Assembly: GCA_054600435.1 (NCBI GenBank)
Contig: BAAIJX010000008.1
Location: 310,001 to 374,000 of the forward strand
Source of the DNA: Neophaeotheca triangularis
Lineage: Eukaryota
Length of the DNA: 64,000 nt
Direction of reading: 5' to 3'
Part shown: piece after piece, positions 43,666 to 46,553 of the stretch
Numbering within the stretch: the first letter of the stretch is position 1
Layout: the number at the start of each line of letters is the position of its first letter
Notes under the pieces: model-generated
What the model was told of the DNA's origin: nothing
Database searches by the model: none
The model's input: the letters and a program-made list of their open reading frames with translations, nothing else
Made by a program: the position numbers and the translations under genes

Positions 43666-44457
43666 GGAGGGGTGTGTAAATGGTGTATGCACTGTATAGG
43701 CGGCGTGGTACGCTTCTAGAGGACGGGAAAGAGCTCGCTCGTCCAAGTGCAGGTGGTCGTACTTCCAGAATGGAAGCTAATGATTGCGACACTTCAGGCT
43801 GGGCTGTACAGTACTACCAGTAGACGGGCAAAAAGGTAAGGAATGGAAGGTATACCAAAGTTGGAAGAGGCTCGTTGGCACGAGGAAGGACAGACACGGG
43901 CAGACAGGCGCGGGGTTTGTCTAGTGTCTGTCAGTCTGTCTACCTAAGGTAACTAACCTTACCTAACCTTACCTATAGTAGGTAGCGACCCCACAGCAAC
44001 GATGGAAAGGTTCGTGACTGGCTCGTGCCTGGCAGGTGGACCCTGACTTCAGTAGCACTAGTAGTAGTAGTGTACTAGTGACTTGAGTCGACCGCAGTAG
44101 TGACTAGCGCCGTGCATTGATCATGTGCGCGCCGTGCCGTGCCGCGCCGCCTGTTGCCTGCCTGACATGAAGCGCTCCGACTTGGGCCTCTTCCTTTCAC
44201 TGCTCCCTTCCTGGTCTCTGCTCTCTACAACACCTACCCACAACTTCCGAGAGCAGACACGTCGCCCTTCACAAAGGTCAGTCAATTTGCAGCATTATCT
44301 ACTTCACTAGAGCAATAAACTTACACTCCCTCAAAGGCGCGTTGACGCTTCCAGACTCCCTTGCGCAGAAGCTTCCGAAAGCGGCGCTACCTTCACTCCA
44401 AACACCTCCCATTTTACGAATACCATCTTCACGCGCCAGTTCAGCAAGGTCGTCATC

Positions 44458-45359
44458 ATGGACGCCATGGACTCTCCTGGCCGCTCGCCCGACCCCGAGT
44501 CGCAAGAGGACGCGAACAAAGTCAGCTTCCGCTTCTGCCAGGAATGGTATGTCTTCAGATCCTCACGTAAAACACGACGCCTCACGCACATCACTAACAC
44601 CCTGGCCAGCTCCAACATGCTTTACCCGAAGGAGGACAAGCTCAACACCAAGTTGATGTACTCTTGTCGTTCCTGCCAGTACTCCGAGGAGGCGGGCCCC
44701 AAAGCCAGCGACAACTGCATCTACCGCAACGAACTCGCCCAGCAAGTCTTCGAGACGGCCGGCAATGTGGAGGATGTCGCCGACGACCCAACGGTTAGTG
44801 AAGATCCCGCGAATATGTCGCAGCAGATGGATGAGGGCGGGGCTGGGTATGAGACTGTGCCAGACATGTGCACGCTTTGTGGGCAGGAGATAACTTGCCC
44901 CATATGTGGCGGCGCAAGCGACAACGGCATGGCCTTGGAAGTGGATGACCCGGCGGGCGCAGTTGGCATGTCCGGGCAACAGAGCGCGGTGGAGGCCGAA
45001 AAGCGAGAGCGGGCACTGTCTGGCGCAGGGATTTCAGGTTCAACATGAACGTGGGACAAGAGCAAGGGCCCTCCGAATCCATCTGCTGCGACCCTTGGTG
45101 CCACACGTCACCTGTCCGGCATTTGCTGACTCTGGTATGTCATAGCTCCCCCACTCCGCCGACTACGAGTGCAAGAGGTGCGGCCAACGCGACCACGTCT
45201 ACTTCCAGTCTGTGCAGCGCACCGCCGAGACTGGCATGGTACGCATCAGGCTTACAAATTACCCACTTCGGTCTACCATGCTAATCCTACCTCTAGGCTC
45301 TCTTCTACGTCTGCACCAAGTGCACGAACGTTTGGTCGACCATCGAGGGACAGAAGTAG
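44458..45359 (+). CDS. RPB9: RNA polymerase II subunit Rpb9 (142 aa canonical isoform)
   Basis: Exons 44458-44546, 44610-44793, 45146-45238 and 45297-45359 give FRFCQECSNMLYPKED..CRSC..DPTLPHS..ECKRCG..YFQSVQRTAETGMALFYVCTKC. Confidence 0.95.
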
Positions 45360-45970
45360 TAGGACTCGAAGCTCTTTTGATGGCACATCACTCATATTAT
45401 GGATCACAGTCAGCAAGGCATCGCGCTTTTCCCCGTGCGCCAGCACTCGGTTGTTTCTCAGGCCGACACCACGAATGGCATGTCTGGGCTTACTCCCGCC
45501 ACTGATCAACGTATCGCGAGCTCGTCCCCATGTCGCATGCGTTACAACGGTCGCAACCACGCTACTGAGCTACCGGAGGACCCGAACAAAGATATCCACA
45601 CCCTTGAGGTACCCAAAAGCGAAACGCGACATACGGCCCACACCCTCACACCATTTCACAAGCTAATCCAAAACCATCACGATGTAGTAAGCACAAGTCT
45701 GCCTTCGGGAGATCAGCTTGATTGCTCATTTGGTAGTGGAGGATTTCAAGGGTTGATGTACAGTAGTGTACAACACAGCAGTTCGCTGCAGCAAATGTCA
45801 TTCAAATGCAAATCATTCCTCAAAGACCCGTTCAAACACCCTTAAACTCCCATCTCCTCCCAGTGCCAACGCCGTGCTAATGCTTGGTCGACGTGTCCCT
45901 CCTTACACTCAATCAGCCCTCCAAATCTTTCTCAATCGTACACACCTTCCACTACCCATCCCAACACCCC

Positions 45971-46553
45971 CTACAAATGCATCGGCGCCAAACTCAAAAT
46001 CTTACTCCACCGCCCCTGCCTCAACTCCTTCCCAACAACCCCGTTCAACCGACTCCCTATAGGATCTCCCCCCTTATTCACCAACACACAAGCGTTGTCA
46101 TCGAACCCCACAACACTGCCATCCTCCCTCTGATACTTGTACTTCGTCCTCACAACCACGGCGTGCCGGATATCGCCTCGTCGGACCTTGTTGGCGGCGC
46201 TGACCGAGACGGAACCCCCGCCAGACTCTGGGCCGAAGTTGCGCTGTTTTTGTACGACTACTATTATGCGGTCACCTGGAAGAGGGATGGGGGGGTTAGC
46301 GGGCTGGTGGGTTGGTGGCAGAAGGGGGCCTTGTGTGTACCGATCTGCGCGTGTCGTTTGGAGCGAAGGACTTTGACGCATTCGGCTACGGCTGCGCCGG
46401 AGTTGTCGATTACGTTGACCATGGTCTGCAAAGGGGAGGGAGTGGGTTAGTTCCGTCTTGATGTAGAGACTCTGTGGTCTGGATTTGCACTGGTGATGGG
46501 CGTTCGCGGTCCGGGGGATTTTGATGGAGATGGCGTACCTTGAGTTGGATCAT
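45971..46553 (-). CDS. MRPL38: Mitochondrial large ribosomal protein uL14m
   Basis: MIQLKTMVNVIDNSGA..IGDRIIVVVQK..HAVVVRTK..FDDNACVLVNKGGDPIGSR. Two introns. Confidence 0.9.

Follow-up and report, generated by a model that had tools for sequence, protein, structure and literature searches.

Rpb9 (POLR2I) is a subunit of RNA polymerase II (Pol II) that tunes start-site choice, fidelity, backtracking, and transcription-coupled repair, and to our knowledge it is treated as a single protein with two zinc ribbons in all eukaryotes. The two-ribbon plan, or the fold of its C-terminal ribbon (C-ribbon), is shared by Rpa12 (A12.2), Rpc11 (C11), and TFIIS, which are encoded by separate genes and carry a catalytic acidic hairpin in the C-ribbon. 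We know of no exchange of the C-ribbon through an intron in any of these three proteins. The gene considered here is RPB9 of the fungus Neophaeotheca triangularis, which lies within a stretch of 64,000 nucleotides (contig BAAIJX010000008.1, positions 310,001 to 374,000 of the forward strand; hereafter the window). As read from the sequence, it is a four-exon gene on the plus strand at positions 44458–45359 of the window, and its second intron contains an open reading frame (ORF) that continues from exon 2 and encodes a different C-terminus, or tail, with four cysteines. The TFIIS-type ribbon family PF01096 is matched here only by exon 3 of RPB9.

The closest experimental parallel is found in yeast. 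Residues 1–52 of yeast Rpb9, comprising the first zinc ribbon (Zn1) and the linker, suffice for ATG1 transcription and its activation and for autophagy; mutations of the cysteines of the second ribbon (Zn2) have no effect on ATG1 or autophagy, and Zn2 is dispensable (PMC9638876). Since Zn1 and the linker suffice there, a natural form that lacks the C-ribbon could work. In domain content, the engineered truncations of that study correspond to the N-terminal 91 amino acids (aa) of the isoform proposed below, but they are laboratory constructs with nothing added, whereas the form considered here is natural, conserved, and equipped with a new C-terminal module.

A second parallel is intron retention, reported to be the commonest form of alternative splicing in fungi and often coupled to decay (e.g., PMC9118705, PMC5006051). 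The fungal cases are described as transcript-level regulation, whereas the retained sequence of RPB9 is under protein-level selection and is part of the gene for a core subunit of Pol II. Full-text literature searches turned up no account of an Rpb9 isoform or of the tail considered here. Retention of introns that encode protein is already known as such. To the best of our knowledge, it is new to find a conserved alternative zinc module in a core subunit of Pol II.

Two putative products of RPB9

The best reading of the sequence is that RPB9 would be a two-product gene, both in N. triangularis and across much of the Dothideomycetes, and the same arrangement probably occurs in other Pezizomycotina. 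If intron 2 is spliced, ..DPT would be joined to LPH.. to yield canonical Rpb9, with its N-terminal ribbon (N-ribbon) and TFIIS-type C-ribbon. If intron 2 is retained, translation would continue for 84 codons past exon 2, to the TGA at 45046–45048, and yield an isoform of 175 aa. This isoform would keep the N-ribbon (Zn1) and the whole linker, and would carry a variable-length acidic spacer, a knuckle of four cysteines (Cys4), and a charged helix in place of the C-ribbon. A probability of roughly 0.7 is assigned to the tail being translated as an alternative C-terminus through retention of the intron.

The two products are readily told apart by domain content. The spliced product of the gene corresponds to canonical Rpb9/POLR2I (PF02150 plus PF01096), since joining 44793 to 45146 gives DPT-LPH, in agreement with the Rpb9 linker junction DPT-LP[RH]; a DPT-LP junction is also present in the fully spliced relatives P0109, P0113, P0119, and P0120. 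PF02150, the N-ribbon family, is matched by exon 2 plus the tail (P0001; E 4.4e-8, 33.3 bits vs. a cutoff of 25.2), and PF01096 by exon 3 alone (E 9.3e-5, 22.6 bits vs. a cutoff of 21). The PF01096 ribbon is thus confined to the spliced product and absent from the read-through isoform, which differs from canonical Rpb9 in having instead a spacer, knuckle, and helix without a match in Pfam or among PDB sequences, and with no fold match above noise for the uncertain tail model.

The donor of intron 2, GTTAGT at 44794, lies immediately 3′ of ..DVADDPT, and the acceptor TAG at 45143–45145 is followed by CTC. Reading on from the donor gives the tail peptide VSEDPANMSQQMDEGGAGYETVPDMCTLCGQEITCPICGG.. 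up to the TGA. Exon 1 (89 nt) and exon 2 (184 nt) together supply 91 codons, which with the 84 of the tail make up the 175 aa. The original prediction had described a phase-0 intron of 352 nt with 84 open codons, a TGA at 45046–45048, a CxxC-x5-CxxC motif, and a 175-aa product, and all of these are correct by sequence. Intron 2 is also roughly six times as long as intron 1 (63 nt) or intron 3 (58 nt), and its G+C content of 62% is above that of the flanking exons, compared with 52% in intron 1 and 46% in intron 3; both features are unusual for an intron. At least 84 open codons occur in 4.3% of mononucleotide and 7.7% of dinucleotide shuffles of intron 2. On its own, the open frame could thus have arisen by chance, and it is conservation that gives it significance.

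Conservation of the tail and its coding pattern

The tail is readily found in other fungi. A word-seeded search scored on the tail alone returned 20 proteins, with E-values from 7.6e-44 to 3.7e-9, all of which consist of the Rpb9 N-ribbon plus the tail, and an exhaustive phmmer search with the tail against 1.84 billion representative sequences gave 21 matches at E up to 1e-3. A profile built from 20 tails matched 83 longer proteins. Among the Dothideomycetes, the gene models matched by the profile come from Cladosporium, Friedmanniomyces, Meristemomyces, Recurvomyces, Saxophila, Elasticomyces, Oleoguttula, Acrodontium, Lecanosticta, Pseudocercospora, Cercospora, Septoria, Venturia, Verruconis, Microthyrium, Trichodelitschia, Macrophomina, Lasiodiplodia, and Phyllosticta. 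A public gene model of N. triangularis itself, P0079, is 98% identical to the tail of the window. Weaker profile matches include the lichen fungus Ikaeria (Lecanoromycetes), and models of Cytospora (Sordariomycetes) carry LCGCCGQVIMCSDCG at the same place, directly after DPT-V, although the match of the Cytospora tail is modest (hhalign probability 58%, E 1e-4, 19 columns).

In an alignment of 32 proteins, eight tail residues are invariant (P, C, T, C, G, C, C, and E), as against two in the N-ribbon part. The glycine after the second cysteine is invariant in the aligned tails and that after the fourth nearly so, and the consensus of the knuckle is P-x-[MFL]-C-T-[LM]-C-G-Q-E-I-x-C-x-x-C-G; the charged helix ends in ..EKRERALSGAG. 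In a protein search seeded with the N-ribbon, and hence unbiased with respect to the tail, the 51 closest relatives were considered. The read-through form with the Cys4 motif is present in 46 of them, a count that takes in P0123 by eye, as its motif CTLCGKAILCPFC was missed by the search pattern. The other five comprise four proteins with the canonical DPT-LP junction and a fragment, P0111, that ends at DPT. The suggestion made with the original prediction, that a Cys-rich tail ends the Rpb9 models of some Pezizomycotina, was borne out by the tail, profile, and N-ribbon searches alike.

The arrangement is also preserved at the DNA level. Scanning of metagenome contigs with the tail profile identified 32 loci. 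Intron 1 is present in all 31 that reach far enough upstream, so that all 32 loci are regarded as genomic. Every one of the 32, like the window, has the Cys4 ORF in the frame of exon 2 with all four cysteines kept, while the spacer that separates DPT from the motif varies in length from ~5 to ~40 codons. The tail is closed by a stop codon in 28 of the 28 loci whose contig includes its end. A splice donor stands directly after DPT in 32/32 loci, with the form GTNNGT in 28 of them (GTTAGT, GTCAGT, GTGGGT, or GTTGGT) and GCAAGT in four. The latter (L016–L019; e.g., L017:1031) is the standard donor form of a GC-AG intron, and it changes the encoded Val to Ala with the splice consensus kept. Intron 1 of L012, L013, and L029 also seems to begin with GC (TG/GCACGT or GCAAGT).

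Downstream of the tail stop, a branch point (CTGAC or CTAAC), a YAG acceptor, and the C-ribbon exon follow within 64–124 nt in 19 loci and the window, the exon having the pattern LP[HR]..C..C..FFQSQQRTAETGM. The same arrangement is seen by eye in L014 and L017. As for the remaining loci, the contig ends before the C-ribbon exon in eight, and L016, L018, and L019 share the same last exon. With an in-frame tail, kept splice signals, and a C-ribbon exon all in place, both splicing and reading on are structurally preserved. The original prediction of a conserved in-frame Cys4 C-terminus is upheld by the 32/32 loci, by the 46/51 relatives, and by the substitutions described next; orthologous introns without the frame and cysteines were named with it as the refuting outcome, and the opposite was seen.

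The substitution pattern of the tail resembles that of a coding exon. Across 26 unique sequences, the diversity at codon positions 1, 2, and 3 is 0.26, 0.19, and 0.57 in the Cys4 core (30 codons) and 0.33, 0.26, and 0.51 in the last 30 codons of the N-ribbon exon. The ratio of non-synonymous to synonymous differences (pN/pS), calculated for the core without the eight codons used as search pattern, is 0.42, compared with 0.535 for the N-ribbon exon; synonymous sites are close to saturated. With the pattern codons again set aside, pairwise comparison of the core among nine close loci gives 182 synonymous vs. 20 non-synonymous differences and a pN/pS of 0.03.

An alignment of eight close loci gives the same picture. 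All gap runs within the tail are 3, 12, or 15 columns long, and the overall and third-position diversities are 0.067 and 0.18 in exon 2 and 0.071 and 0.195 in the Cys4 core. Introns 1 and 3 are unalignable in this close group, with overall diversities of 0.44 and 0.38, respectively, and neither displays codon periodicity. Even the C-ribbon exons are less conserved there (0.21 in exon 3 and 0.16 in exon 4) than the intron-borne tail (0.07). This pattern reads as the signature of translated sequence continuous with exon 2, and the amino-acid sequence of the tail is under purifying selection. Separately, exon 3 of loci L001–L009 (e.g., L001:1649-1750) varies in the spacing of the first cysteine pair of the C-ribbon, from C-x2-C to C-x6-C.

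Long introns of housekeeping genes often host small nucleolar RNAs (snoRNAs), and the window contains long antisense ORFs of 156, 128, and 114 aa, so that the conservation could in principle be due to a snoRNA, another small RNA, or an antisense gene inside intron 2. The conserved peptide continues from exon 2, however, and all 29 unique loci have an open sense frame, whereas antisense frames are open in only 12 to 20, each of them being closed in at least nine. A search of positions 44300–45500 against Rfam at E up to 10 gave no match inside intron 2. An embedded RNA or antisense gene is accordingly very improbable. One CD-box match outside the intron (44422–44463, minus strand) was discarded as chance level, at 11.5 bits vs. 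a gathering score of 41.

The same comparisons bear on the possibility of a chance open frame in a G+C-rich intron, spread through the databases by gene-prediction software. The appearance of 84 open codons in 4–8% of shuffles would allow for this, as would the many database entries that are plain ORF calls. The idea is refuted by protein conservation across species at E 1e-17 and better, by the invariance of the Cys4 motif, by a frame kept in 32/32 loci despite a spacer of variable length, and by the coding pattern of substitutions, which together leave it a practically negligible probability.

Splicing, probable retention, and RNA-level signals

Evidence for both RNA forms was sought in six metatranscriptome runs containing 7–21% of the sampled words, and the contigs of four were compared with the gene. 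One contig pair, from run X1, has introns 1 and 3 spliced exactly at the borders given in Table 1. These contigs stop at 44787 and resume at 45192, leaving intron 2 uncovered and unbridged. In relatives, ORFs that are fully spliced and read DPT-LPH are found on two short contigs, P0119 (Logan, 1022 nt) and P0120 (ENA, 779 nt), indicating that intron 2 is really spliced there. P0120 and the read-through model P0056 of Cladosporium allicinum have identical N-termini over the 45 residues compared.

Retained forms are suggested by eight ORFs known from Logan only (P0048, P0060, P0067, P0070, P0107, P0114, P0146, and P0147), in which intron 1 is removed and intron 2 is read through. Other Logan ORFs begin inside intron 1 (e.g., P0003, P0004, and P0023) and are plain ORF calls. 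Because intron 1 is present in every genomic locus that extends to it, and because the other ORFs start within it, the eight are most simply explained as complementary DNA (cDNA) contigs of retained transcripts. They suggest, circumstantially, that intron-2-retaining transcripts exist in other species. P0114 represents 53 member sequences, and its first 86 residues are identical to the Hortaea werneckii entry P0111.

Plain retention fits the sequence features best among the routes originally proposed. The alternative route, intronic polyadenylation, looks less likely, as the 97 bases between the tail stop and the end of intron 2 are G+C-rich (58%) and no A-rich poly(A) signal was seen in them by eye.

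Conservation in this region is not confined to the amino-acid sequence. Within the close group, third-position diversity is as low as 0.098 in the 3′ third of the tail (..EEELVKAEQRERAVSSVAS), compared with 0.18 in exon 2, and the VEAEKRERALSGAG stretch is also kept at third codon positions. Beyond the stop codon, the diversity is 0.08 over the first 21 nt and 0.16 over the rest of intron 2, vs. the 0.38–0.44 of introns 3 and 1. An exact 16-mer, GGGAGGCAAGAGGAGG, occurs in 9 of the 32 loci at 0, 1, or 4 nt 3′ of the stop. These include L001 (L001:1562-1577) and the divergent L010 (L010:2700-2715) and L015 (L015:2682-2697), and the 16-mer does not differ even between lineages with saturated synonymous sites. 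It is not coding, since its offset from the stop varies. At 45051–45068, the window has no ungapped match to the 16-mer within three mismatches and contains only a diverged, gapped version. In another lineage (L012:1313-1345, L014:1242-1290, and L017:1388-1440), the stop is followed by a conserved stretch of its own, TGAT.TT..TTTTGGCAGTCTT..TAGCACA.CATGGC. Conservation after the stop is thus general in intron 2, and the conserved sequence is lineage-specific.

A consensus structure calculated with RNAalifold from eight sequences contains 13 base pairs, including those between a GGGAG after the stop and a CUCCC where exon 3 begins, as well as a hairpin at the branch point, where TTTGCTGAC or TGTGCTGA(C/T) is kept across the eight aligned sequences. 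No covariation was detected among the 13 pairs in these eight sequences. The 16-mer is an unproven candidate for an intronic splicing regulator or for a sequence that pairs with the 3′ splice site (GGGAG:CUCCC). The balance between spliced and retained RNA may be governed by the conserved stretch around and after the tail stop.

These signals raise the possibility that retention is regulatory only. The retained transcript would then be an unproductive splice form destined for decay, perhaps under autoregulation, and the conserved sequence would serve RNA control and encode no useful protein. Such a scheme accords with the position of the tail stop ahead of the last exon junction, with the low third-position diversity in the 3′ part of the tail and the low diversity after the stop, with the 16-mer at its varying offsets, and with a G+C content at third codon positions (GC3) that is lower in the tail than in the exons. 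It leaves unexplained the three-base periodicity, the 182:20 ratio, and the in-frame insertions and deletions of the Cys4 core and spacer, and it does not account for cysteines that are invariant while the third bases of their codons vary. The 13 predicted pairs, none of them covarying, lend it no further weight, and a coding tail and a regulatory element can coexist. A purely regulatory role is therefore judged unlikely. Dosage control and a functional peptide are compatible and not exclusive.

For a translated tail made by retention, several observations count on the other side. In N. triangularis, the RNA contigs that lie on the gene flank intron 2 and are uninformative either way, and the reading of the eight Logan ORFs as cDNA contigs is circumstantial. 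The tail stop lies 5′ of the intron-3 junction, and a retained messenger RNA might consequently be degraded by nonsense-mediated decay. Part of the conservation signal, namely that at synonymous sites in the 3′ third of the tail and after the stop, lies at the RNA level. Tail GC3 is below exon GC3 in 26 of 30 loci, which points to a less translated or minor product; in the window the values are 0.63 for the tail vs. 0.83–0.90 for the exons. This lower GC3 suggests a product translated from a minority of transcripts. Public models for close relatives conflict with one another, with read-through, hybrid, and canonical forms all present. In addition, no names from the Pleosporales, Eurotiales, or Leotiomycetes appear among the matches of the profile or N-ribbon searches. 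Finally, the loci were found by the tail pattern and database ORFs exist only where the frame is open, such that lineages without the tail are invisible, and the frequency and range of the tail are not to be read from the counts of a sample ascertained in this way.

Should the translated tail be real, retention would produce a variant Pol II subunit by domain swap. The isoform would presumably act as a C-ribbon-less Rpb9, either on Pol II through Zn1 or in competition with the canonical subunit, and it could keep part of Rpb9 function and alter whatever depends on the C-ribbon. The composition of Pol II would then be regulated by splicing in a major fungal group, with a second type of Pol II, or a free factor resembling Rpb9, that differs in start-site, fidelity, or repair behavior. 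The Dothideomycetes include many plant pathogens and extremotolerant black yeasts, and the tail has been kept by selection in many of their genera, with weaker matches in two further classes. The full proposal, in which many filamentous ascomycetes maintain two Rpb9 isoforms through a regulated C-ribbon swap, with a purine-rich switch element and a second kind of Pol II or a free factor as the outcome, is advanced tentatively, the odds being somewhat against it.

Tail structure, gene models, and features of the locus

From the invariant C-x2-C-G..C-x2-C-G pattern, the four tail cysteines would be expected to bind zinc. The tail belongs to no family in Pfam, where its best match was DUF4796_N (E 0.039, 14 bits vs. 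a cutoff of 27), followed by a rubredoxin-like family (E 0.34). A sequence-profile search of the PDB with the tail likewise gave nothing meaningful (best E 0.46, for eS27 and rubredoxin), and the ESM Atlas offered no meaningful neighbor for it, the best score of 0.84 being below the 0.9 lead level. A model of the tail made with AF2 from a 20-sequence alignment has a mean pLDDT of 69, with block means of 78–80 over residues 21–40, which include the Cys4 motif, and consists of a small knuckle plus a helix at tail residues 53–76. Fold searches with this small and uncertain model yielded nothing above noise (Foldseek against the PDB, E 3.7; VIA-align, Z 2.9 over 48,161 chains). For the full read-through protein of Pseudocercospora fijiensis (P0021), the AF2 model has a pLDDT of 52 and is too poor for judging whether the knuckle docks on the N-ribbon.

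Public gene models treat the locus in different ways. For instance, models of 176, 215, and 274 aa exist for RPB9 of Friedmanniomyces endolithicus alone. P0079 (MBLNU230_g7965t1, 284 aa; positions 44161–45359 of the window) joins ..GQQSA to LPHS.. via GTGGAG at 44989. Its start is an upstream ATG at ~44161, followed by a leader intron, which places 77 extra residues before the conserved Met at 44458, and the model looks wrong at both ends. Other hybrid models join ..SGAGL to LPRT (P0062 and P0066) or ..STAGL to KIEEC (P0068), and in P0027 a single open frame runs from the tail straight into the C-ribbon.

Models of this kind could be taken to mean that the Cys4 motif is an insertion in the linker and that an internal donor creates a three-module Rpb9, consisting of N-ribbon, Cys4, and C-ribbon. 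Four NCBI gene models are built in this manner (P0079, P0062, P0066, and P0068), and the uninterrupted frame of P0027 is in line with them. A scan for internal phase-0 GT donors paired with the normal acceptor, however, found none after the fourth cysteine that fully matches GT[AG]NGT in the 32 loci or the window, whereas in 29 of 29 GT cases the canonical donor that follows DPT carries a G at +5 and a T at +6. The GTGGAG of the window matches one of three consensus positions, and its use would delete the protein-conserved VEAEKRERALSGAG. Moreover, the four models use three different junctions, as gene finders do when bridging two coding-like blocks. An internal donor of this sort is quite unlikely, and a tail translated by plain retention is preferred. 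In some lineage, going by P0027, retention itself may yield a three-module protein. The architecture of the RPB9 locus would account for its inconsistent public annotation. The features of the locus are collected in Table 1.

Table 1. Features of the RPB9 locus of N. triangularis (positions in the window).
Feature	Position	Strand	Description
RPB9 exon 1	44458–44546	+	89 nt; start codon and first CxxC of the N-terminal zinc ribbon; X1 RNA contig begins at 44458
Intron 1	44547–44609	+	63 nt, GT..AG; removed in X1 RNA contig (joins 44545/46 to 44609/10)
RPB9 exon 2	44610–44793	+	184 nt; rest of N-ribbon and linker, end ..DVADDPT; PF02150; X1 RNA to 44787
Intron 2	44794–45145	+	352 nt, phase 0, GTTAGT..CTGAC..TAG; putative alternative coding extension
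Read-through tail ORF (P0002)	44794–45048	+	84 codons + TGA; homologues in protein searches
Cys4 motif CTLCGQEITCPIC	44869–44907	+	C-x2-C-x5-C-x2-C
Second conserved tail motif VEAEKRERALSGAG	44989–45030	+	within AF2-predicted helix; consensus VExExRERxLSGAG in a Dothideomycete subset
Weak internal donor GTGGAG	44989–44994	+	used by public gene model P0079, from Cys4 part to C-ribbon
Purine-rich stretch GTGGGACAAGAGCAAGGG	45051–45068	+	just 3′ of tail stop; diverged counterpart of the 16-mer in related loci (alignment)
Branch-point consensus CTGAC	45126–45130	+	14 nt before acceptor AG
RPB9 exon 3	45146–45238	+	first half of TFIIS-type C-ribbon, LPHSADYECKRCGQ..YFQSVQRTAETGM; PF01096; X1 RNA 45192–45237 joined to exon 4
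Intron 3	45239–45296	+	58 nt; removed in X1 RNA contig
RPB9 exon 4	45297–45359	+	ALFYVCTKCTNVWSTIEGQK; TAG at 45357–45359; second CxxC of C-ribbon

Intron 1 of the window is open in the exon frame as well, and a single frame of 245 codons extends from 5′ of the ATG through the tail (44311–45048). As a result, plain ORF callers report misleadingly long ORFs at this locus. Outside RPB9, a stop-to-stop frame of 192 codons is found on the minus strand at 45971–46549, and its peptide seems to resemble a uL14-type ribosomal protein.

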